From the NCBI GenBank assembly GCA_016185625.1, contig JACPND010000007.1:8262-72261 (forward strand): a stretch of DNA of 64,000 bases. Reading direction: 5' to 3'. The position numbers and the translations under genes are program-made. This DNA is from Candidatus Woesearchaeota archaeon (lineage in GTDB: Archaea; Nanobdellota; Nanobdellia; Woesearchaeales; GW2011-AR9). Numbering within the stretch: the first letter of the stretch is position 1; every line of letters begins with the position of its first letter. Below the pieces are notes generated by a model, which did not search any database, had not been told where the DNA came from, and saw only the letters and a program-made list of their open reading frames with translations. Of the stretch, positions 14,019 through 43,342 are shown one piece after another.

Positions 14019-14804
14019 TTACTGCTGTACAAACGTACAACGCGTCGCCGTCTGCGTTTTCTGCTCATAGTAATGCACGGTCGCCCGTTGCGCTAGCTCT
14101 TCCCTATCAGAACGCTGCCAGAGGGAAGCAATGAACAGCTTGATAATGTCTCCATCACGACTCAGAATAGTGGCTTGTTTGTCTTGGTTTGCAGTCACAT
14201 ATTCGAGCAAGGCTGAAACCAGAGAGGCGTCTGCATGAGAAGGCTTATGTTCTTTCATCCGTGGAAATTTGACTTCTATGGGATTCATGAGCTGAATACC
14301 GTCAACGATTTGGCGATGGACGTCAAGTGTCTGCTGAAGATATCCCGTGAGCCTTTGGTAATCAGCAACCAGATCCTCTACATTGCTATCTTTGAGATGG
14401 TATTGGTATTTTTCCTGATGGTGATGCTTAAACTTAGTGCCTCTCCCGTTCCGCGCGTGAGAGGATTGTTGCCGAAGCAGAGCAGATTCTTTACGTTGAT
14501 TCTGCCTATGATACTGTATGCAATGCTCAAGATGCCGGTTAAGAGCATCAGCCTCTGCTTTAATGTACGATGTGGTGAAGATTGTCAGTCTATCGTTCAA
14601 TAGACTCTGAATAAGGTCCATTTGCTGTAAGACGCCGTATAGTTCCGTGTCGTATCGGGCTAGCCTAAGGTAGGAATTGGCATCGTAGAGGCGGCGATCA
14701 AGATCAGAAGGCATGGAACATAAGATATTGTTATCTACGAGAATTACGTCATGCCTGTCCAATACCTCCGTTACCGGTATGTCATTGATAACTCCTCGTA
14801 TCAT
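14019..14804 (-). CDS. hypothetical protein (261 aa), possibly PIN-like
   Basis: The N-terminal VILVDNNIL and C-terminal ILSRDGDII resemble PIN acidic motifs, but the spacing is atypical. Weak. Confidence 0.3.
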   Translation of the reverse strand: MIRGVINDIPVTEVLDRHDVILVDNNILCSMPSDLDRRLYDANSYLRLARYDTELYGVLQQMDLIQSLLNDRLTIFTTSYIKAEADALNRHLEHCIQYHRQNQRKESALLRQQSSHARNGRGTKFKHHHQEKYQYHLKDSNVEDLVADYQRLTGYLQQTLDVHRQIVDGIQLMNPIEVKFPRMKEHKPSHADASLVSALLEYVTANQDKQATILSRDGDIIKLFIASLWQRSDREELAQRATVHYYEQKTQTATRCTFVQQ

Positions 14805-15324: not shown

Positions 15325-15657
15325 ATGGAAGAAGAACTGATTAAAAATATTAAGATATTTTTACGCTCTGCGGAGTTAGTGTACCAGACTAACGATTATA
15401 CTTCTGCGGTAATTCTCTATTTCAAGACGCTGTTTGTAGCTCTGGACTTATTTCTGTTAAAAAAGATCCAGATTGTTCCCAAAGACCATTCTGAACGGTT
15501 TAGGCTGCTGGAGAAATCTTTTCCCAAAGAATATTCTATGTTAGACAAATATTTTTCTATTTATCGAAGCACTTACTCTACTACCATCGAAAAAGAAACC
15601 TGTGAGGAAATACGTAAATATGTTATCTACTTCATTAAAGAAAAGTTTGGAATCTAA
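15325..15657 (+). CDS. HEPN-domain protein (partner of the nucleotidyltransferase)
   Basis: 110-aa helical protein directly upstream of, and overlapping, a minimal nucleotidyltransferase gene, which is the canonical HEPN/MNT architecture. Family assigned mainly by context. Confidence 0.5.
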   Translation: MEEELIKNIKIFLRSAELVYQTNDYTSAVILYFKTLFVALDLFLLKKIQIVPKDHSERFRLLEKSFPKEYSMLDKYFSIYRSTYSTTIEKETCEEIRKYVIYFIKEKFGI

Positions 15658-16201
15658 ATGCCAACAGTTTAAATATGAAAATCCGGAAATTCTGGATATT
15701 CTACTATTTGGCTCTATGATGAAAGGTAAAGATAAAGCTAACGATTTAGACCTATTGATTGTTTTTAAAGAGAAAAAAAACTTAAATTTAATGTACGAAT
15801 TCAGGAAGGTTATTGAACCATTCGTCAAAGTAAGAGTAGAAGTGACGGGAAAGACTTACGCAGAACTATTTTCAGATAGTTTTCTTGCTCGAGAAGCTAT
15901 ATTAGCTGAAGCCTACAGCTTAATCCAAAAGAAGTCTGTAGCGGAGGGATTAGGGTTTAAGAACTTTTACCTGTTTAATTATTCCCTAAAAAAGAAAAAC
16001 AAATCCGAGAGGATGCGGTTTTATTACAGCTTATATGGAAGGAATAGCTTAGGGATTCTTAAGAAGCTTGGAGCAGTGAAGTATGCAGAAACAATCATTC
16101 TTTGTCCTACGGAGAATAAAGAGCTGATGAAAGGGTTTCTGGAGAGTTGGAAAATCGAATTTAAAGAGACGCCAATATTAATCCCTAAAAGAATTTTATA
16201 A
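15602..16201 (+). CDS. minimal nucleotidyltransferase (MNT) domain protein
   Basis: LLFGSMMKGKDKANDLDLLIVF, i.e. the GS...DxD nucleotidyltransferase motif; the real start may be Met 15620. Confidence 0.7.
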   Translation: MRKYVNMLSTSLKKSLESKCQQFKYENPEILDILLFGSMMKGKDKANDLDLLIVFKEKKNLNLMYEFRKVIEPFVKVRVEVTGKTYAELFSDSFLAREAILAEAYSLIQKKSVAEGLGFKNFYLFNYSLKKKNKSERMRFYYSLYGRNSLGILKKLGAVKYAETIILCPTENKELMKGFLESWKIEFKETPILIPKRIL

Positions 16202-16484
16202 GATTGTTTGAATAACCCTTAAATCCAGTCACTTTGTTCGTGTCAAGTCACTAGCGTTCGTGAGTTGCTTACCAGCAACAGTTGCCAGATTTCAGAAAAA
16301 AATGCCGTATACTGAAGGAACGAAATATTTGAACATATTAGTTCGTTCCTTTATATATAGTGGTGGCTAATGATGTTTGAGAATTAATGACCACCACTAT
16401 ACGACGCAAAATTACTGTTACTAAAGTAGAATTTCTCCACAGTGATGAGAATAACTTATATACTTTAAAGTTCGTCTAATCTCC

Positions 16485-17288
16485 ATGAAAGAATTAGAAA
16501 CGGAATTGAAACTGCGCGGCTTCTCACCGAGAACGGTCTCCACCTACATCTATCATAACCGGCAATTCCTGAAATGGAACGGCAAGCAACCTCAAGATAT
16601 TCAGGAAGCGGATATTAAAGCGTATTTAGCTTATATCCTGGCCGACAAGAAGTTACGGAGCAGCTCGGCAGCCTTAATCAGGGCGGCATTAAAATTCTAT
16701 TACGATGAAATTCTGAAGAAAAATATCGTGAACCTAAAAACGCCAAAAATTGCGCGTCATTTGCCGGAAGTGTTGACGCAGGAAGAGGTCAAGAGTTTAT
16801 TAGCATCAGCGACACATTCTAAAAGCAGGATTTTGATGAAATTATTATATTCCTCGGGAATCCGGCTCTCGGAATGCCTGCATCTACGGTGGCAGGATCT
16901 CGATTTTTCGCAGAAGATGGGCTGGGTGCGGGGTGGGAAAGGCGGGAAAGACCGGATGTTTATTCTGTCGGAAGATATTTGTAAAGAATTAGAAAGAATA
17001 AAACAGAAGAATGGGCTGATTTTTGATAATAAGGATGGAAAAGCCTTATCGCCGCGGAATGTCCAGAAGATTGTCAAGCGGGCGGCAGAAAAAGCAGGCA
17101 TCCAGAAAAATATCACGCCGCATAAATTACGGCATTCCTTTGCCACACATTTGCTGGAAGCTGGCACGGACATTCGGATCATTCAGGAATTGCTCGGGCA
17201 TAGCAACTTACAGACGACACAGATTTATACGAAAGTGTCACAGGAGCAGTTAAAAAAAGTGAGAAGTCCGCTGGATACGATAAGATAG
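16485..17288 (+). CDS. xerA: tyrosine recombinase, XerA/XerC/XerD family
   Basis: C-terminal RHSFATHLLEAGTDIRIIQELLGHSNLQTTQIYT, with the catalytic R...H..R...Y. Confidence 0.8.
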   Translation: MKELETELKLRGFSPRTVSTYIYHNRQFLKWNGKQPQDIQEADIKAYLAYILADKKLRSSSAALIRAALKFYYDEILKKNIVNLKTPKIARHLPEVLTQEEVKSLLASATHSKSRILMKLLYSSGIRLSECLHLRWQDLDFSQKMGWVRGGKGGKDRMFILSEDICKELERIKQKNGLIFDNKDGKALSPRNVQKIVKRAAEKAGIQKNITPHKLRHSFATHLLEAGTDIRIIQELLGHSNLQTTQIYTKVSQEQLKKVRSPLDTIR

Positions 17289-34963: not shown

Positions 34964-36754
34964 CTACAGCCCCAGCCTTCCTAACACCACTTCCGCCTTA
35001 AACTCCTCTAAATCCTCATACTTCTGTCCCGTCCCTAAAAACAAGATAGGCTTCTTGATGGTATAGGCAATCGAGAGCGGTGCACCGCCTTTTTCATCGA
35101 CATCTGCCTTGGTTAGAATAACGCCGTCGAGATCAACGAGTTGATTGAATGTTCGAGCCTGCTCAATGCAGTCGTTTCCGGTAATGCTCTCACCTACAAA
35201 AATCTTCAAGTCCGGCTTCGACACTCTGATTATTTTCTGCAATTCTGACATCAAGTTAGTATTGCTGTGCAGTCGTCCGGCAGTATCAATGAGCACCACG
35301 TCAATCTTGTTCTTCTCCGCATATTTTACGGCATCATAAGCCACGGCAGCCGCATCGGCGCCGTAATCGTGCTTAATTGTTTTCACGCCTAATTTGTGGG
35401 CATGCTCTTCTAATTGCTGGATCGCCGCCGCCCGAAAGGTATCTGCTGCCGCCAACACCACTGTTAATTTGTGCTGCTGGAAATAACGGGCAAGCTTCGC
35501 AATCGAGGTTGTTTTTCCCGCGCCATTGATGCCAAAAAAAGCAATCACTAATGGTTTCCTTTCTCCAGCCATCTCCAGCACATTTACTTTCTCAACTGAT
35601 ACAATCTCTTGGAGCGTCTGTTTCAGCGTCTCCGTCACCTTTTTGGAAACGTCCCACGGCAAGGGCTTATCTACTAATTCCTTCTTCAGATCGTCTTTAA
35701 TCCTCTCGATAACTTCCACAGAGACATTATTTTCCAATAACGCCACTTCCAGATCCCAGAATAATTCGCCAAACTTTTCTTCCGAGATCGTCCTGGTGGT
35801 AAACGTCTCTTTAATCCGCGTAAAGAAGCCTTTCTTTTCTTCTTTCAGTTCTTCAGCTTCTTCTTTTGCTTTTAATCCTGCTTCTTTGATTTTTTTTTCT
35901 TCTAAAACTTTTCGTTCACTTATCTGAACCGGCTTTTCAGTCCAATAATTCCATCCCGGCTGCCATTGCTTGGCGTTTCTCCAATCATCCTTAAATGCCT
36001 GCTCCCAGCTTTTTCCTTTTAGCAGAACTTCCATGGCTAATTGCGGAGCCTGATGGGCGACAATGGCGACGTGCTTGCCGGCATATTTATCCCAGAGAAA
36101 GTTCAGAAACTCCGCCATCCGTCTCTCGACGTCACGATACGATTCCCCGCGGGGAAATGCGGTATCAATTCTCTTCAGAATATCCGCCTTGACCTTCTTT
36201 TCATCCTGCCCATTCAACTCTCCATAATTGCATTCCCGTAATCGCCCATCGGGAATGATGTTGTACGGATTTTTTGGCCAGGTTAATTTTGCGGAATCCA
36301 CAGCTCGCTTCAAGTCCGAGCAGAAAATGACGTCAAATTTCTGATCACCGATCAGCTCACGCAATTCGCGGGATTGTTTCTTTCCTAATTCAGATAATTC
36401 TCCCGGATTCCAGCCGGTGGAAATATTGTTTTCGTTATCTGTCGTCGTTCCGTGAACGAAATAGGTTATTTTGACGCCATTTATTTTTTCTTTCGATTTT
36501 ACTTCTTTTTTCTCTGGAAGAACTCCCACTTTCTTTTCCGGTAATTTAGATCTTGTTTCTTTTTTCTGGATTTCAGTTCTCTTGATCTCAATTTCCTGAA
36601 TCTCTATTTTTTCTTTCAGAATTTTCTCTGGGTGAACTTCTTTTTTTGAAACTTCTATAACTTTTTTCTCAGGAACTTTCTTTACTTCTTCCTCCGTCTT
36701 CCTGGAGAAGATAGAAAGAGCGTCCTTAAGCTTCTCTTTGAGTTTCCCGAACAT
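34964..36754 (-). CDS. ftsY: SRP receptor FtsY carrying an inserted histidine-phosphatase (PGM/SixA-like) domain in its N-terminal region
   Basis: C-terminal NG domain: GINGAGKTTSIAKLA, DTAGR, TKADVDEKGG. N-terminal: a K/E-rich tract, then YFVHGTTTD...CSDLKRAVDSA...VAIVAHQAP (histidine-phosphatase-like, with RHG replaced by VHG), then GFFTRIKETF (the start of the FtsY N domain). Confidence 0.8.
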   Translation of the reverse strand: MFGKLKEKLKDALSIFSRKTEEEVKKVPEKKVIEVSKKEVHPEKILKEKIEIQEIEIKRTEIQKKETRSKLPEKKVGVLPEKKEVKSKEKINGVKITYFVHGTTTDNENNISTGWNPGELSELGKKQSRELRELIGDQKFDVIFCSDLKRAVDSAKLTWPKNPYNIIPDGRLRECNYGELNGQDEKKVKADILKRIDTAFPRGESYRDVERRMAEFLNFLWDKYAGKHVAIVAHQAPQLAMEVLLKGKSWEQAFKDDWRNAKQWQPGWNYWTEKPVQISERKVLEEKKIKEAGLKAKEEAEELKEEKKGFFTRIKETFTTRTISEEKFGELFWDLEVALLENNVSVEVIERIKDDLKKELVDKPLPWDVSKKVTETLKQTLQEIVSVEKVNVLEMAGERKPLVIAFFGINGAGKTTSIAKLARYFQQHKLTVVLAAADTFRAAAIQQLEEHAHKLGVKTIKHDYGADAAAVAYDAVKYAEKNKIDVVLIDTAGRLHSNTNLMSELQKIIRVSKPDLKIFVGESITGNDCIEQARTFNQLVDLDGVILTKADVDEKGGAPLSIAYTIKKPILFLGTGQKYEDLEEFKAEVVLGRLGL

Positions 36755-37429: not shown

Positions 37430-38659
37430 ATGCTCGGCCAGACTAAATTACTTCTTATCCCGTGCTCCGGGTTAGAAACGAAGACGCTCGCGGAAGAGAT
37501 CTATCAAATTCTCCATCAGGACTACGGGCTCGAAAATCAGGTTGAAATTCTGCTCAGTAAACGAATGGCAGAGGTAGATAAGGAAACTCCTAAAGCTCAT
37601 CGCCATCCCTTGGTAAGCGATTCTTTTGCCGACCGCGAGGTGGATGTTGATATTGGCGCCAATCAATTAAAGGATGTTATCCGCGGCAAACATGTTGTTC
37701 TAGTTGAGCATTTATTGACGCCGTATCGGAAAGTGTCTCCGGAAGATTCTGACTCTGTTTCCGTCAATGATCATATCATGACCGTCCGCGGGTTTTTGGA
37801 AGTGATTGGAAATGTCGATACACTTCAGCGAACGCTGGCAACACCATATTTAGCCTATGTTCGGTCTCATAGCGTTGAAAAATATCAAAAGAGAGGATTT
37901 TATCAGTTTGACTCTTTGCGGTTAATGTTGCAGGATCTTCAGAAAGGCGGTTTGGACGTTTTAGCCACCATTGATCCTCATTCCCTGAAAGCAGCACAAC
38001 TGGCAGAAGAATTAGGCATGGCTTTTCATATCGCAAATCCGTTCCAGTCCGGGAGGGCAATAAATCCTTATAAACTGGGCCTATCTGGAGAAAAATCGAG
38101 AGAAATCATAAAACGTCTACGGCCATTCCATGAGTTGATCGTCAGGTTAAAAGAGCAACAAAGTGCGCAGCATCTCTATTTTGTCTCTGTTGACGACGGC
38201 ACCGAGCACCGTGTAGAGAATGTGGTTGATAGAGCTTTTCCCAAAATTCCATCAGAAGAAGCTTATGCACTTCTTGCCTACTTTGAAAAAGACCGATTCT
38301 CTTACGATGGTGCCACGTCTCGGTTTAAGCCATTTAGTCCTATTAAAGAAAGTAATATTGATAAAGAAGGAACGTATATCATCATTGACGACATGTTTGC
38401 CAGTGGCAGCACCGCCATGAAAGCGGCTAAGATATTCAAGGAACATGGCGCCAAGCAAGTCGTTGGCTGGATGAGTCATGCCGTGACTACGCCTCTACAG
38501 CATAGGACCGCTAATGATAGAAAATATTTAGATAAAGTTGTCTGTTTGGATACTGTCCCGCAGCATCCCGATTTGAACGTAGAATATATTAAAGCCAGCG
38601 CTGATCTTTTGGCTGCCGAATTATACAAAGCGCATCAGAAATTAGTGGCATCACGTTGA
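37430..38659 (+). CDS. phosphoribosyltransferase-domain protein, ribose-phosphate pyrophosphokinase-like (divergent, 409 aa)
   Basis: TYIIIDDMFASGSTAMKAAKIFKEHGA is a PRPP-binding motif. Confidence 0.5.
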   Translation: MLGQTKLLLIPCSGLETKTLAEEIYQILHQDYGLENQVEILLSKRMAEVDKETPKAHRHPLVSDSFADREVDVDIGANQLKDVIRGKHVVLVEHLLTPYRKVSPEDSDSVSVNDHIMTVRGFLEVIGNVDTLQRTLATPYLAYVRSHSVEKYQKRGFYQFDSLRLMLQDLQKGGLDVLATIDPHSLKAAQLAEELGMAFHIANPFQSGRAINPYKLGLSGEKSREIIKRLRPFHELIVRLKEQQSAQHLYFVSVDDGTEHRVENVVDRAFPKIPSEEAYALLAYFEKDRFSYDGATSRFKPFSPIKESNIDKEGTYIIIDDMFASGSTAMKAAKIFKEHGAKQVVGWMSHAVTTPLQHRTANDRKYLDKVVCLDTVPQHPDLNVEYIKASADLLAAELYKAHQKLVASR

Positions 38660-38665
38660 GATCTG

Positions 38666-38804
38666 ATAAAACTCCATCTCATCCGTCTTCTCGTCCACAA
38701 AGATATTTTCCTCTTTCGTCTTTACTTCCTGCTCCCCCTTTACTTCCGACTTCCTCTTATCCGCTGTCCCCTTTCCGCTTAATCCCACCTGCGGCGTCTT
38801 CTTC
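38666..38804 (+). repeat. 139-bp direct repeat, copy 1 (attL-like): duplicate of the 3' coding end of the TYW1 gene
   Basis: It differs from 42197-42335 at 3 positions. It lies in an intergenic position immediately after the stop of the 37430-38659 gene. Confidence 0.85.
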
Positions 38805-38870
38805 CAATAATATTAAAAGGAATCAGGGAGTAATGTTTTTAATGGAGTGGTGTATTTGTAGGTTAAGAAG

Positions 38871-39941
38871 GTGTTACCTATGCTTTTAGCCAAAAATAAA
38901 GAGTATCTTCAACTATTGCACGAGATTAAAGTTAGGGTTAGGTCTGCTCAGATAAAGGCAGCGATTTCTGTCAATAAAGAGCTTATCGGCTTGTATTGGG
39001 ATGTTGGTAGAATGATCACTGAAAGACAAGCAAAGGGTAAATGGGGGGATTCGATCGTAGATATGCTTGCTGGTGATTTGAGACGAGAATTCCCAGATAT
39101 GAAAGGGTTCTCCAGAGCAAATATCTTCAATATTCGTCAATGGTATCTTTATTATTCAGCTGTAGATGAAAAAGTCCAACAACTTGTTAGACAATTGCCA
39201 TGGGGTCATAATATGGTTATCGTTAACAAAATAAAAGACTCTCAAGAAGCTATTTTCTATATCAACGAGACTATTAGAAATAATTGGTCAAGAAATGTTT
39301 TAATTCACCAAATCGAAAGTGGATTATATCAAAGAAAAGGTAAAGTTTTGCATAATTTTGAGGCTACATTACCAGCACCTCAATCAGATTTAGCACGGCA
39401 AACACTGAAAGACCCCTATATTTTTGATTTTCTTTCACTTGAAGAAGAGGCACAGGAAAGGGAAATTGAAAAAGAATTGACAAAGCACATCACAAAATTT
39501 TTGCTGGAATTAGGTGCCGGTTTTTCATTTGTGGGAAGCCAGTATCCTCTGGAAATATCGGGAAAGGATTATTACCTTGACTTGCTTTTTTACCATCTCA
39601 AATTACGCTGTTTTGTGATTATTGAACTGAAAGCAGGAGAGTTTAAGCCGGAATATGCCGGAAAACTGAATTTTTATCTCTCTGCTGTTGATAAAACATT
39701 GAAACAAGAAGGGGATAAACCGTCCATAGGGATTATTTTGTGTAAAACAAGAGACAAGGTGATAGCGGAATATGCTCTCAAAGATATGAGTAAGCCTATG
39801 GGTGTTTCTGAATATAAAATAGTTCGTGCTATTCCTGAGAAACTAAAAACGAGCTTGCCGACGATTGATGAACTGGAGAAAGAATTGTCAAAGAATGATG
39901 AGATACAAAAATCAATTAAGAGAAAGAAACAAAACAAATAA
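38871..39941 (+). CDS. DUF1016/YhcG-family PDDEXK nuclease
   Basis: The N-terminal EYLQLLHEIKVRVRSAQIKAAISVNKELIGLYWDVGRMI...GWGDSIVDMLAGDLRREFPDMKGFSRANIFNIRQWY is the characteristic YhcG N-domain. The C-terminal region is the PDDEXK part (D...ELK). Confidence 0.65.
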   Translation: MLPMLLAKNKEYLQLLHEIKVRVRSAQIKAAISVNKELIGLYWDVGRMITERQAKGKWGDSIVDMLAGDLRREFPDMKGFSRANIFNIRQWYLYYSAVDEKVQQLVRQLPWGHNMVIVNKIKDSQEAIFYINETIRNNWSRNVLIHQIESGLYQRKGKVLHNFEATLPAPQSDLARQTLKDPYIFDFLSLEEEAQEREIEKELTKHITKFLLELGAGFSFVGSQYPLEISGKDYYLDLLFYHLKLRCFVIIELKAGEFKPEYAGKLNFYLSAVDKTLKQEGDKPSIGIILCKTRDKVIAEYALKDMSKPMGVSEYKIVRAIPEKLKTSLPTIDELEKELSKNDEIQKSIKRKKQNK

Positions 39942-39945
39942 GGAC

Positions 39946-41988
39946 ATGAAAAATGCAGTTATTAAGTGGTTTAAAGAAATAGGTAAAAATGATACGTCAA
40001 GTGCTGGGGGGAAGGGCGCATCTCTAGGGGAGATGACTAGCACAGGAATTCCTGTTCCTCCTGGTTTTGTAATTCTTGCTGATGTGTTTGAACAATTTCT
40101 CCACGAAGCTAAAATTCATACCCAAATCGATGCCATTCTTCACAAAGTTGATCATCGCGCAATGCATACAGTAGAGCAAGCGTCAGAAGAAATTAAAGCT
40201 CTTGTTATGAATGGAGAGATGTCGAAGAAGATTACACAAGAGATTCTTACTGCGTTTAAGAAATTAGATGTGCCGTTTGTTGCAGTCCGTTCTTCTGCTA
40301 CGGCTGAGGATAGCTCCATTGCGGCATGGGCTGGGCAGTTAGAAAGCTACCTCAATACAACCAAAGAAAATCTCTTAGAGAATGTGAAGAAATGTTGGGC
40401 TTCGTTGTTCACCCCAAGAGCTATATTTTACCGATTTGAACAAAATTTGCACGAGCAGCATATCTCTGTTGCGGTTGTTGTCCAGAAGATGGTGGAGTCA
40501 GAAGTTTCTGGAATCGCTTTTTCTGTCCATCCCGTGACGCAGGACAAAAATCAGCTCATTATTGAGGCAGGATTTGGATTGGGGGAGGCTATAGTTTCTG
40601 GACAAATTACGCCGGATAGTTATGTCATGGAAAAGAAAAATTGGAAAATTATTGAAAAGAGTGTTTCTACCCAAACCAAAGCACTCTACAAAAGCAAAAG
40701 TAGGGGCAATGAATGGAGAGAAATTTCTGGAAGTGGACAAAAGCTTTCCGATGCTCAGATTATAGAATTGTCAAAATTGGTGGTCAAAATAGAGCAGCAT
40801 TATAGTTTTCCGGTAGATGTGGAGTGGGCTTTGGAAAGAGGGAAGTTTTATGTTGTGCAGAGCAGACCGATAACAATGTTAATAGATAAAAAAGAGAGTT
40901 TAAAACAGTTTAACAAAGAAAATTATCTGTTAAGCTTTTGGGTTCAAGGAGTGAGTGTTTTTGTGACTGATATTCATTTAGATGTGTACAAAAATCTTGA
41001 AGTGCTTTTTATTATTGATAGTGGTATGTTTAAACAATACTTTACTAAAGCAGCTTATGAACGAGCACTTGATGAAGGACTTCGTTTTTATAACGACAAG
41101 AAAACATTTCAAAATTATAAAAAAGATTTAACTTTGGATTGTGATCGGTTTAAGACATTTTTTGAACTGAAAATAAAAAATAAAGAAACTCTTTCGCGTG
41201 AAATTGTTAGTACTTTCTTTGATTATACTAAAAAGTTATGCGGCGACTATACCAAAATGAATTTTGAGTTTACTGATAAAGCTTATTCTCATCAAGATGA
41301 GAATCCCATCATTAAGAAGAATCTTTCTGGTGTTACACAATTTAAAGATCAAATACGAGCGTTCATGAATACGGTTTTATTTGAGCCGGAGGGGTATTCT
41401 ACTCATTTTTTCAAGATACTTGGCAAACAGTTTAGTCTTTCTTCCCTCTTATTTAATAATCTAACCCAAAAAGAAATTCTTGGTTTGTTTGATGGGAAGA
41501 AACCTGTTGATTCAATTGTTTTGAAAAGACAAGAGGCGTTTGTTGAAAGTTATAACATTGATGGTTTTTATGAAGGAAGTGATGCTGAAAATATCATTAG
41601 AGAATTTAAAGAAGAGGTAATTTATTCTGATATTATAAAAGGAAATGTTGCAAGTAGAGGTAGAGTGACTGGAACAGTGAAGATAATTCCTGTGGATTAC
41701 AGTGATTTAGATCGTGTTCATGCTGAAATTGAGAAAATGAAAAAAGGAGATATTCTTGTGGCAGAAACCACTGCTCCAGAATTGATCATTGCTTGTAAAA
41801 AAGCAGGGGCAATTGTAACTGATATGGGTGGTCTTATGTCTCATGCAGCGATTGTTAGTCGAGAGTTCGGAATTCCTTGTATTGTTGGGACAAAAAATGC
41901 TTCAAAAATCCTTAAGGATGGAGATCGTATAGAAGTGGATGCTACAAAAGGAATAGTTAAAGTCATTTCCCAGATTCCCCGCTCGTAG
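39946..41988 (+). CDS. PEP-utilizing-enzyme family protein: PPDK-N/ATP-grasp domain plus C-terminal phosphohistidine swivel domain, lacking the PEP/pyruvate TIM domain (rifampin-phosphotransferase-like architecture)
   Basis: N-terminal KWFKEIGKNDTSSAGGKGASLGEM; C-terminal GGLMSHAAIVSREFGIPCIVG; start set to MKNAV, 4 nt after the YhcG stop. Confidence 0.65.
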   Translation: MKNAVIKWFKEIGKNDTSSAGGKGASLGEMTSTGIPVPPGFVILADVFEQFLHEAKIHTQIDAILHKVDHRAMHTVEQASEEIKALVMNGEMSKKITQEILTAFKKLDVPFVAVRSSATAEDSSIAAWAGQLESYLNTTKENLLENVKKCWASLFTPRAIFYRFEQNLHEQHISVAVVVQKMVESEVSGIAFSVHPVTQDKNQLIIEAGFGLGEAIVSGQITPDSYVMEKKNWKIIEKSVSTQTKALYKSKSRGNEWREISGSGQKLSDAQIIELSKLVVKIEQHYSFPVDVEWALERGKFYVVQSRPITMLIDKKESLKQFNKENYLLSFWVQGVSVFVTDIHLDVYKNLEVLFIIDSGMFKQYFTKAAYERALDEGLRFYNDKKTFQNYKKDLTLDCDRFKTFFELKIKNKETLSREIVSTFFDYTKKLCGDYTKMNFEFTDKAYSHQDENPIIKKNLSGVTQFKDQIRAFMNTVLFEPEGYSTHFFKILGKQFSLSSLLFNNLTQKEILGLFDGKKPVDSIVLKRQEAFVESYNIDGFYEGSDAENIIREFKEEVIYSDIIKGNVASRGRVTGTVKIIPVDYSDLDRVHAEIEKMKKGDILVAETTAPELIIACKKAGAIVTDMGGLMSHAAIVSREFGIPCIVGTKNASKILKDGDRIEVDATKGIVKVISQIPRS

Positions 41989-42163
41989 TCAATGCCAAAA
42001 AATTTTGGTGAAGCGTTAGCGAAACCGTTTAGTCAAGGTTAGAGGAAGTTAGTAATTTCATTATTCTCGTTTTTATCAACTAAACGAAAGCACCAACCAT
42101 CAAAATTTCCAGTAGTAGCGAAGCGTGCGTACTTGTTAAAGCGTTGAAAAAATTGAATATAGC

Positions 42164-43342
42164 CTATCTTATCTGCACTAATTCTTCTGCCTCCCCATAA
42201 AACTCCATCTCATCCGTCTTCTCGTCCACAAAGATATTTTCCTCTTTCGTCTTTACTTCCTGCTCCCCCTTTACTTCCGACTTCCTCTTATCTACTGTCC
42301 CTTTTCCGCTTAATCCCACCTGCGGCGTCTTCTTCAGGTAATCGTCAGTGGTAAATTCTTTCCCCGAAGCAGCCAGCTCATGAAACTTCTCAAAATCTAT
42401 CCAAGTATGCCAGACCCCATTCTTCTTGAATTTCTTTTTGGCCAGCATCACCACGCGGGATGGAAGATGTTCTGACACTATTTCATATTCGGGAAGATGG
42501 ATCACTAAATCTTTACAGAATTCCACGATCTCTTCATGCAGCGGCATATTCTCCCGCTTCAATCGCTGCTGCGACGGGCCGACATGCATATAGCTTTTCA
42601 CTTCAATGAAATCAGGAAAGCCTTTCATAATCAGCTCAGCATATTTGTCCAGAAGAACATCATTGATTCCTTTAATCACCGTCAGCCGGATGCACGTCCG
42701 CTGCTTTTTCCGAGATAAGTATTCCAGCGACTGGATCATCCTCTCCCAAAAATCAGGAAACAAAGGCACATCTACTTCTTTCAGCAGTTCTTTTGTCGGC
42801 GCATCCACGCTGCAATATAATTGTGTTATCGGCTTCAGGTTCTTGATGTGCTCGGGATACTGCGAGTTCGTCACCAGGAACGTGGAAACCTTATTCTGAT
42901 GGAACATCTCCACTAATTCGTTCATGCGAGGATAGGTGATCGGCTCCCCGGTGAGCGAGAGCGCCACATGGCGTACCTCTTTGGATTTCTGATACGCTGC
43001 TTTGTTCGCCTTCTCCGAGCCGCCAAAACCCACCAATAGTTTATGATGCGCACAGAGACTTTCTTTAAAGATCAACTCCGGATCATCCACGTCCCATTTC
43101 CAGTCCTTGGAAACAGGCGCTTTATAGCCTCGCCAGCAGAAGGTGCAGCGATTCGCACAGCTGATCGAGGTGGTCATCTGCATGCACTGGTTGCTCATGA
43201 TGCCATAGAACTTCAACTTGTAGCAGCCGCCCTGGCCATTGATCATGTTCTTGGTCCAGCCGCAGGTTTTGACCGCGCTGTGGCTGCCAATGATGCGATA
43301 CTGCTGTTTTTCCAGTTCGGCGCGGGCGGCGGGAGTGAGCAT
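42164..43342 (-). CDS. taw1: tRNA 4-demethylwyosine synthase TYW1/Taw1 (radical SAM) with a K/E-rich C-terminal tail
   Basis: CANRCTFCW cluster and the TYW1 fold; the last ~55 codons lie within the direct repeat. Confidence 0.75.
   Translation of the reverse strand: MLTPAARAELEKQQYRIIGSHSAVKTCGWTKNMINGQGGCYKLKFYGIMSNQCMQMTTSISCANRCTFCWRGYKAPVSKDWKWDVDDPELIFKESLCAHHKLLVGFGGSEKANKAAYQKSKEVRHVALSLTGEPITYPRMNELVEMFHQNKVSTFLVTNSQYPEHIKNLKPITQLYCSVDAPTKELLKEVDVPLFPDFWERMIQSLEYLSRKKQRTCIRLTVIKGINDVLLDKYAELIMKGFPDFIEVKSYMHVGPSQQRLKRENMPLHEEIVEFCKDLVIHLPEYEIVSEHLPSRVVMLAKKKFKKNGVWHTWIDFEKFHELAASGKEFTTDDYLKKTPQVGLSGKGTVDKRKSEVKGEQEVKTKEENIFVDEKTDEMEFYGEAEELVQIR
42197..42335 (+). repeat. 139-bp direct repeat, copy 2 (attR-like), inside the 3' coding end of the TYW1 gene
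   Basis: See copy 1. Confidence 0.85.

Follow-up and report, generated by a model that had tools for sequence, protein, structure and literature searches.

Probable site-specific integration of an integrase-less two-gene cassette in the 3' end of TYW1 in a Woesearchaeota archaeon, with further inserts at the same codons in relatives

This study concerns a 64 kb stretch of DNA (the window, meaning the whole stretch analysed) from the metagenome-assembled genome (MAG) of a groundwater archaeon of the Woesearchaeota (DPANN), and in particular one locus at the 3' end of TYW1, the gene for 4-demethylwyosine synthase. Two genes lie between TYW1 and a convergent host gene, which encodes a divergent phosphoribosyltransferase resembling PRPP synthase (PRPPS-like). 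The first encodes a YhcG/DUF1016 nuclease and the second an enzyme that resembles rifampin phosphotransferase (RPH). Both are enclosed by a direct repeat, each copy of which is a piece of the TYW1 3' end (Table 1).

Table 1. Features of the TYW1 locus and the recombinase candidate in the window, and three further inserts in other contigs (L011, L036 and L032).
Feature	Position	Strand	Basis or content
PRPP-synthase-like divergent phosphoribosyltransferase, convergent host gene, flank B of the reconstructed empty site	37430-38659	+	Weak Pribosyltran and ribP_PPkin matches
Orphan TYW1 3' fragment: copy 1 plus presumed ancestral tail QIST and stop	38651-38804	-	Translation
Direct repeat copy 1, attL-like, distal from the TYW1 body	38666-38804		136/139 identity to copy 2
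Conserved upstream region of the YhcG unit, with A/T-rich TATA-like stretch	38819-38879	+	Near base-for-base alignment with L090, L091 and L092
YhcG/DUF1016 PD-(D/E)XK nuclease gene	38880-39941	+	Pfam YhcG_C and DUF1016_N
Gene for ATP-grasp, helical middle and C-terminal phospho-His swivel enzyme, 680 aa	39946-41988	+	Pfam PPDK_N and PEP-utilizers
Non-coding spacer of the insert (P arm), 175 nt, GC 0.354	41989-42163		Lies between the second cargo open reading frame (ORF) and TYW1
Replacement TYW1 tail GEAEELVQIR and stop, putatively element-supplied, last 33 nt of the gene	42164-42196	-	ORF translation
Direct repeat copy 2, attR-like, in the coding 3' end of intact TYW1	42197-42335		Repeat comparison
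Intact TYW1 (4-demethylwyosine synthase), target gene	42164-43342	-	TIGR03972 equivalog
XerA-type tyrosine recombinase, speculative trans candidate	16485-17288	+	NF040815 recomb_XerA_Arch, 260 bits vs 220; Phage_integrase and SAM_4
L011 insert	L011: 11146-11712		23-nt repeat TTGAGTTTTTATGA(G/A)GGGTAAA, covering ...LSFYEG and stop; 0.52 kb between repeats; antitoxin-like ORF and ParE toxin
L036 insert	L036: 6597-7573		18-nt perfect repeat GGAAGAGTTGGCGTTTTA; 0.94 kb between repeats; PIN_2 toxin and small partner ORF
L032 insert	L032: 11128-11630		30-nt repeat, 24/30 identical; 0.42 kb between repeats; ParD-like ORF

The two copies of the window repeat are 139 nt long and match at 97.8% of positions (blastn E 5.7e-65). 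All three mismatches sit in one 10-nt cluster (about 38762-38771), and up to 96 nt in a row match perfectly. Among the direct repeats of the window this pair is the longest, and the sole pair with copies within a few kb of each other. The enclosed DNA amounts to 3,392 bp. Within it the YhcG stop codon is separated by 4 nt (39942-39945) from the ATG of the second gene at 39946. This start, which gives a protein of 680 aa, fits the family alignment; the NCBI-annotated form is 697 aa long and overlaps YhcG. The non-coding spacer beyond the second gene had no homologue in any fetched locus. An earlier inspection of the same DNA, here called the sequence-only reading, had described 139-bp repeats with three mismatches bracketing a 3.4-kb cassette of two genes, a nuclease and an enzyme with PPDK_N and His-swivel domains lacking the phosphoenolpyruvate (PEP)/pyruvate domain, set 4 nt apart and unaccompanied by an integrase. 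The repeat comparison, the spacer coordinates and a Pfam scan agree with it on all of these points.

TYW1 itself is intact. It scores 346 bits against the TIGR03972 cut-off of 318, its Radical_SAM and Wyosine_form domains are complete, and the protein is 100% identical to NCBI protein P0241 (MAG locus tag HYX14_). Woesearchaeota TYW1 proteins have a C-terminal extension of ∼90 aa past Wyosine_form (window 42164-42440, minus strand; ∼60 loci). The extension holds two conserved motifs, KTPQVGLSGKG and FVDEKTxE(L/M)xFY, the second being the one targeted by the cassettes described here. The TYW1 reading frame is restored across copy 2 and ends in the tail beyond it. Copy 1, read in the TYW1 frame, gives ...KKTPQVGLSGKGTADKRK...FVDEKTDEMEFYQIST and ends in DEMEFYQIST, with a stop codon just upstream of KKTPQ; it is an orphan 3' fragment. 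The sequence-only reading had this ending right, but it placed the orphan stop exactly against that of the convergent gene, whereas the terminator, read from the sequence, is a TGA at 38651-38653 that produces a 9-nt overlap. Past the FY motif, the TYW1 tails of 80 relatives range from 0 to 25 aa and differ greatly, and identity between element and host stops after FY because the tails there vary so much. The PRPPS-like protein matched every phosphoribosyltransferase or PRPP synthetase model below the curated cut-off. It represents a divergent family kept beside TYW1 in several Woesearchaeota.

TYW1 was scanned in one genome per GTDB species, which generated 80 loci, nearly all from Woesearchaeota or Nanoarchaeota. 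In the closest GTDB relative (UBA10194, designated L004; TYW1 79% aa identity) TYW1 and the PRPPS-like gene are directly convergent with an 18-nt overlap and are cassette-free, so that the uninterrupted junction which the sequence-only reading had proposed looking for was found. The PRPPS-like orthologue of L004 is 67% identical to the window protein. On the strand complementary to the PRPPS-like stop codon, TYW1 of L004 has a Ser codon, and copy 1 in the window is in the same register. A more distant phosphoribosyltransferase-like gene is directly convergent with TYW1 in L009 and L017 as well. The cassette also stands out in composition. G+C content at third codon positions (GC3) is 0.316 for YhcG and 0.300 for the enzyme, compared with 0.485 ± 0.075 in the remaining 52 window ORFs counted as genes. 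None of the 54 has a lower GC3 than these two, and a GC trough coincides with the cassette. A convergent empty site in L004 and an outlier composition are as an insertion would predict.

The locus is probably the product of integration of the type attP x attB (att, attachment site), in which a foreign cassette with a composite cargo would have entered the TYW1 3' end through a recombinase acting in trans. The ancestor would have had a TYW1 ending in DEMEFYQIST, overlapping the end of the convergent PRPPS-like gene. A circle of ∼3.53 kb would have carried the end of a TYW1 gene (KKTPQ through EMEFY) with its own tail, GEAEELVQIR, attached. Within the shared TYW1 segment, a single crossover of the Campbell type, attP with attB, would then leave TYW1 intact with the tail of the element, the original 3' end orphaned 3.5 kb away, and the foreign DNA between the copies. 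The recombinase that would carry out the integration would be encoded elsewhere. Because the 139-nt block is 98% identical, the cassette may last have resided in a very close relative.

To look for recurrence, each of 82 TYW1 loci was scanned for the 3' end of its own TYW1 occurring a second time. Three further inserts were found, in L011, L036 and L032, all at the codons of the E-(L/M)-x-F-Y motif, while upstream control regions gave only two low-complexity matches. As far as can be read from their sequences, the three share the geometry of the window, with a new gene tail and the old tail orphaned (the L011 tails were not compared). In L036 the intact TYW1 tail is EELAFY-NEGIKQS and the orphan ends in EELAFY-E, a typical family tail. 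The L032 orphan, KTEELAFYGEALVPML followed by its stop codon, ends 3 nt from the stop of the PRPPS-like gene, a layout as in the window. Differences between the L032 copies fall at third codon (wobble) positions in 5/6 cases. This suggests that both copies evolved within functional TYW1 genes of separate lineages before they were joined, in which case the TYW1 tail of the incoming DNA had been picked up from elsewhere. After the orphans of L011 and L036 come a conserved host promoter and start, which in L054 and L038 lie immediately after TYW1. Subtraction of the inserts restores the spacing of ∼280-370 nt between the TYW1 end and prefoldin that is known from L034, L038 and L054.

The F-Y codons (TTTTAT/C) lie inside all four repeats. 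In three cases (window, L036, L032) the repeat stops no more than one base from these codons, and that of L011 continues through the stop codon. No recombinase gene was found in any of the four inserts. A regular expression for longer orphan tails, V-D-E-x-T-x-E-x-x-F-Y, found none downstream of TYW1 in any locus besides the window, and no orphan lies beside the PRPPS-like gene in L019, L031, L043, L045 or L046. The sequence-only reading had proposed an attL/attR-type integration in the TYW1 3' end with a replacement tail. L004, the GC3 values and the three further genomes support that proposal and generalise it.

Additional genes are found downstream of TYW1 in other genomes. The toxin-antitoxin cassette of L011 recurs there in L008 and L010 (83-90% aa identity), ∼0.5 kb further out. 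L010 and L039 have in common a pair of genes encoding proteins of 576/585 aa and 117/121 aa. The islet (L008:10245-11300; L010:5613-8900; L039:8181-10354) looks modular and combinatorial in L008, L010, L011 and L039. TYW1-tail-like remnants read by eye between the modules of L008 and L010, such as ACTTTTTTAGAGGAATAA, did no better than shuffled sequences and are suggestive only. In L019 the interval from TYW1 to the PRPPS-like gene (L019:5266-7683) holds an ORF with sigma-70 regions 2, 3 and 4 and a multi-helix-turn-helix ORF, that is, transcription machinery of bacterial or phage type in a DPANN contig.

For L011, L036 and L032, whose repeats (23 and 18 nt, and 24/30) lack the length or the identity that homologous recombination needs, a site-specific recombinase in trans is the economical explanation. 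It is extended here to the window cassette. The sole tyrosine recombinase among the scanned window ORFs is a XerA-type gene 22 kb from the cassette. No evidence ties it to the cassette, and its role as the cassette recombinase is speculative. With the window XerA as the only query, which limits sensitivity to close tyrosine recombinases, tblastn of the 82 TYW1 loci gave recombinase matches in two, both upstream of TYW1. A 6-bp dyad, TGAGAT...ATCTCA, was seen by eye in the reconstructed attB and is absent from the element side. The cassette holds no third, internal copy of the att core and so gives no support to a build-up of two att-bounded cassettes in tandem.

Several observations weigh against integration by a recombinase in trans. 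The Pfam scan found no recombinase in the cassette or its flanks (ORFs of at least 120 aa within ∼13 kb on each side), and the arms of the four inserts have no sequence motif in common. An identity of 98% over 139 nt is far above that usual for att sites, and would also suit homologous recombination for the window insert. The empty site was taken from a genus-level relative, because accessible collections hold no conspecific genome, and TYW1 of that relative is only 79% identical. Linkage across the 96-nt identical block comes from the MAG contig alone. Finally, the tail of the intact gene (GE...) is closer to the tails of relatives than is the orphan QIST. This likeness would be expected if the element took its fragment from another TYW1, and it leaves the ancestral tail unproven.

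Among 5.8 billion proteins there was no same-species TYW1 variant, and the best non-self match was 81% identical. A degenerate DNA pattern for VDEKTDEMEFY gave zero matches in viral contigs and three distant TYW1 relatives in Joint Genome Institute (JGI) metagenomes, and hence neither a conspecific empty site nor an attP-bearing contig in these collections. The entire 3.4-kb unit was searched for elsewhere and not found. Looked up as exact proteins, TYW1, YhcG and the 680-aa enzyme had no match; the 697-aa form and the PRPPS-like protein were present on short Logan contigs.

The same geometry could arise with no dedicated recombinase if a circle with a conspecific or nearly conspecific TYW1 3' fragment were integrated by host RadA through homologous recombination over the 139 nt. 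A repeat of this length and identity, with its 96-nt perfect stretch, is ample for RadA and unusually long for att, the three clustered mismatches resemble prior strain-level divergence, and an integrase was not found nearby. Yet the same codons bound three inserts with repeats of 18, 23 and 30 nt (80%), too short or diverged for RadA, which argues for a site-specific process at the TYW1 tail. The F-Y codons shared by the four repeats, and the three repeats that end so close to them, also argue against it. For the window cassette taken singly this is a fair rival; overall we consider homologous recombination unlikely.

Either an ancestral segmental duplication or the remnant of a large integrated element from which the integrase was deleted would leave a similar structure, and we consider these distinctly unlikely. 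Decayed integrated elements that keep their att sites are known, and the integrase is not present here. However, L004 has the uninterrupted junction, the repeat copies are still 98% identical, and YhcG arrived recently (see below). Decay would have to account for four independent integrase-less inserts of 0.4-3.4 kb, and four such decays are less likely than mobilisation in trans.

The cargo of the window cassette was examined gene by gene. YhcG matches YhcG_C (E 7e-67) and DUF1016_N (E 2e-44) over the full length of both domains, at 224.7 and 151.6 bits, above the cut-offs. The catalytic D...E-L-K is intact, and D234, E249 and K251 are invariant in the alignment. The protein also matches the PADLOC candidate defence class PDC-S02 (E 1.8e-153). 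Homologues with 90-94% aa identity occur in several other Woesearchaeota genomes, far closer than host core proteins; the best non-self TYW1 is 81% identical. In three of these loci (L090, L091 and L092; ∼91%) the neighbours are a DUF5680 gene, an alpha/beta hydrolase gene, or nothing related. Nucleotide homology to the three, at 86-88%, is confined to 38809/38819-39892, which is the gene and ∼60 nt upstream, and begins 5-15 nt from the end of repeat copy 1. The boundaries of the shared sequence differ among pairs of YhcG loci, and no flanking repeats were seen around YhcG in L090, L091 or L092. An identity of 90-94% in unrelated contexts identifies YhcG as a single gene that is spreading recently and independently. 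A scan of the locus with a sigma-70 promoter and terminator model, which is not suited to an archaeon, gave results at chance level. No YhcG relative above 56% identity was found in viral contigs. The window protein has both domains and the catalytic D...E-x-K in common with the YhcG/DUF1016 nucleases; it differs in that its gene has the pattern of a lone gene that has lately been spreading among DPANN archaea, and its role in defence is a candidate one only. The most likely reading of its sequence and distribution is a stand-alone nuclease, either defensive or selfish.

The second protein has a PPDK_N ATP-grasp domain and a PEP-utilizers mobile domain, without a PEP/pyruvate-binding domain. 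Its AlphaFold2 model has a pLDDT of 89.9, and the best full-length fold match is RPH 5hv1 (E 1e-37). His633, in GGLMSHAAI, is invariant across 44 family members. All NCBIfam matches are below cut-off: the RPH equivalog NF041857 reaches 346.6 of the required 999 bits and fits well over the N-terminal part only, and two PEP synthase equivalogs score 434 and 419 bits against 598 and 740. The fold and the conserved His make the protein most likely an ATP-dependent phosphotransferase that acts via phospho-His, like RPH. RPH (PDB 5hv1, 5fbs) and the window enzyme have in common the N-terminal ATP-grasp and the C-terminal swivelling domain with its catalytic His. RPH is ∼865 aa long, and the enzyme is ∼185 residues shorter, with a helical middle of ∼210 residues, as read from the model, that is smaller than that of RPH. 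In PEP synthase and PPDK there is in addition a PEP/pyruvate TIM-barrel domain (PEP-utilizers_C), which is not matched in the enzyme.

The enzyme family is common in Candidate Phyla Radiation (CPR) bacteria and DPANN archaea. The ATP-grasp domain of the window enzyme is 76% identical to the first part, and its middle and His module 75% identical to the last part, of a 1,049-aa archaeal protein that carries two such modules and sits in a cluster with STT3 and glycosyltransferases (L108). Homologues 66-68% identical occur without YhcG in at least one bacterium of the CPR (L085) and in L088, another uncultured organism. No relative was found in viral contigs. Long forms of the family (∼1,040-1,180 aa; L108:8001-11150, P0002) have tandem middle and swivel-His modules after one ATP-grasp. 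The 680-aa form corresponds to the ATP-grasp plus the second module of these, and GC of the gene drops from 0.41 to 0.33 at the join. In L088 (4981-15661) the homologue (66%) follows a UvrD-PDDEXK helicase-nuclease gene and is followed by four ORFs with PEP-utilizers swivel domains, an unusual cluster of phospho-His carrier proteins.

The sequence-only reading had suggested that nuclease and phosphotransferase form a conserved module. The two cargo genes were never together in the six contexts examined: three YhcG loci have different neighbours, and three loci of the enzyme (75%, 68% and 66%) have no YhcG. The sequence-only reading had itself named this outcome as one that would refute it, and for the functional half of its proposal it does so within these six contexts. 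With the pair not conserved, there is no support for a dedicated nuclease-phosphotransferase system. That the two genes nevertheless form a functional unit which moves as one, for example a phosphorylation-controlled nuclease or a defence module, is very unlikely. It would fit their 4-nt spacing on one strand, their similar and atypically low GC3, and the place of the YhcG family among the PADLOC defence candidates. It does not fit L090, L091 and L092, where YhcG stands beside other genes and homology ends at ∼39892, nor the enzyme homologues of L085, L088 and L108, the last in its glycosyltransferase cluster, nor the absence of any PADLOC match for the enzyme. Judged from these neighbourhoods the cargo is probably a composite rather than a system, in which the 4-nt spacing would be an accident of assembly, although the two genes are probably co-transcribed here. 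Tight adjacency and shared foreign composition did not signal a functional pair in this case, which is a caution for guilt-by-association screens of defence islands.

Independent contigs were found in Logan assemblies of three Sequence Read Archive (SRA) runs (SRR12113385, SRR12113420 and SRR12113383), in which 2/4 junctions were reproduced at 100% identity. One is the passage from the PRPPS-like gene to copy 1, present in L001-L003, which end at 38695; the other, from the cassette to copy 2, is present in L084 (39791-42226), whose left end would fit a second YhcG variant in the same sample. Each of these contigs breaks off after 30 nt of a repeat copy, the behaviour expected of a k=31 graph. 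An assembly chimera, in which an empty-site chromosome and a free 3.53-kb circle were threaded as an integrated path, would have the same de Bruijn topology, and the unitigs break 30 nt into each copy, so that the left flanks are joined to the variant positions across the 96-nt block in the MAG contig only, but we regard it as highly improbable: in the contig the two flanks go with different repeat variants, 150-nt reads or a k of ∼100 or more can resolve the identical block, a 3.5-kb circle without a replication gene is unlikely to be abundant, the inserts of L011, L036 and L032 are certainly integrated because their repeats are shorter than a read, and even a chimera would still imply a mobile element whose att site lies in the TYW1 tail.

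Other features of the window are noted briefly. Dispersed intergenic repeats with 95-98% identity lie at 10337-10432/52029-52124, 11690-11888/47536-47828 and 2367-2714/21460-21506. One family ends in CACTCGCTTTTTGGATAGTGCC, the reverse complement of the GGCACTATCCAAAAAGTGAGTG with which another begins, and this suggests miniature inverted-repeat transposable elements (MITE-like) with terminal inverted repeats. Directly upstream of XerA is a nucleotidyltransferase gene (Polbeta/MntA-like) of very low GC (0.335), and a PIN_12 ORF lies at 14019-14804; the region 15602-17288 may be another small acquired patch. An FtsY signal recognition particle receptor with an N-terminal His_Phos_1 domain and a long K/E-rich leader is encoded at 34964-36754 (minus strand), and the FtsY/His_Phos_1-like fusion is partly present in L023, L030 and L036.

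DPANN genomes are tiny, and little is known of how they acquire genes or of their mobile elements. Taken by itself the window locus is an ordinary-looking islet; the unexpected result is the reuse of the TYW1 tail with no recombinase on board. The TYW1 3' tail is a concrete and recurrent integration site, with four independent cases in which the structure before and after can be compared, all of them small cassettes with addiction- or defence-type genes. Mobile genes seem to land here at a site that had not been described before. If the recombinase does act in trans, the site could help to find the enzyme and to catalogue the mobile gene pool, and could possibly serve as a landing pad for genetic tools. 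A bolder and doubtful proposal is that the E-x-x-F-Y codons of the TYW1 tail are the attachment site of a cassette-capture system of Woesearchaeota, at which integrase-less cassettes would be inserted, stacked and exchanged by a host or helper recombinase, with the chromosomal XerA as the sole candidate seen. Such a system may be an archaeal platform like an integron or an IMEX (integrative mobile element exploiting Xer), with a coding sequence as its site. The term IMEX was not found in a review of archaeal tyrosine recombinases (PMC8371274).

Like integron cassettes, the TYW1-tail inserts are small units of one or two genes, often toxin-antitoxin, at one fixed site. They differ from these in that an adjacent IntI is absent, the repeats are pieces of TYW1 coding sequence, and promoters are part of the cassettes themselves. 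Folded as single-stranded DNA, the repeat and the short att regions did no better than shuffled sequences (z -1.0 to +0.1), and the repeats are not attC-like because they have no hairpin potential. An identity with integrons was rejected on both counts, the attC hairpin and the adjacent integrase. Other known elements use the 3' end of a protein-coding gene. In bacteria the integrative and conjugative elements ICESt1 and ICESt3 integrate in the 3' end of fda, and the cis-mobilizable elements (CIMEs) of Streptococcus thermophilus are mobilised by ICESt. CIMEs and integrase-less satellites resemble the TYW1-tail inserts in their att-type repeats at a gene 3' end and in the lack of recombination genes of their own. 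For CIMEs a cognate integrase-bearing element is known at the same site, unlike at TYW1, where none was found in the 82 loci with one tyrosine-recombinase query.

The closest archaeal counterparts are the integrated mobile genetic elements and cryptic integrated elements (CIE) of Thaumarchaeota. Of the thaumarchaeal elements with defined sites, 14/68 integrate in the 3'-distal part of a protein-coding gene and supply a new stop (PMC6563490). Identity between att sites spans 29-69 bp in crenarchaeal elements and mostly <25 bp in thaumarchaeal ones (PMC6563490). An integrase is the conserved, defining gene of CIE, and the elements are mostly 2.6-98 kb (Krupovic et al. 2019, PMC6563490). As in the window, thaumarchaeal elements have flanking repeats with one copy in the target gene, which is kept intact, an empty site in a relative, and nuclease or toxin-antitoxin cargo. 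The TYW1-tail inserts are integrase-less and only 0.4-3.4 kb, and the identity block of the window, at 139 nt, is far longer. From the sequences compared here, the TYW1-tail cases appear to differ from these elements, and to be new, in being integrase-less mini-cassettes that recur at one conserved coding motif in DPANN archaea.

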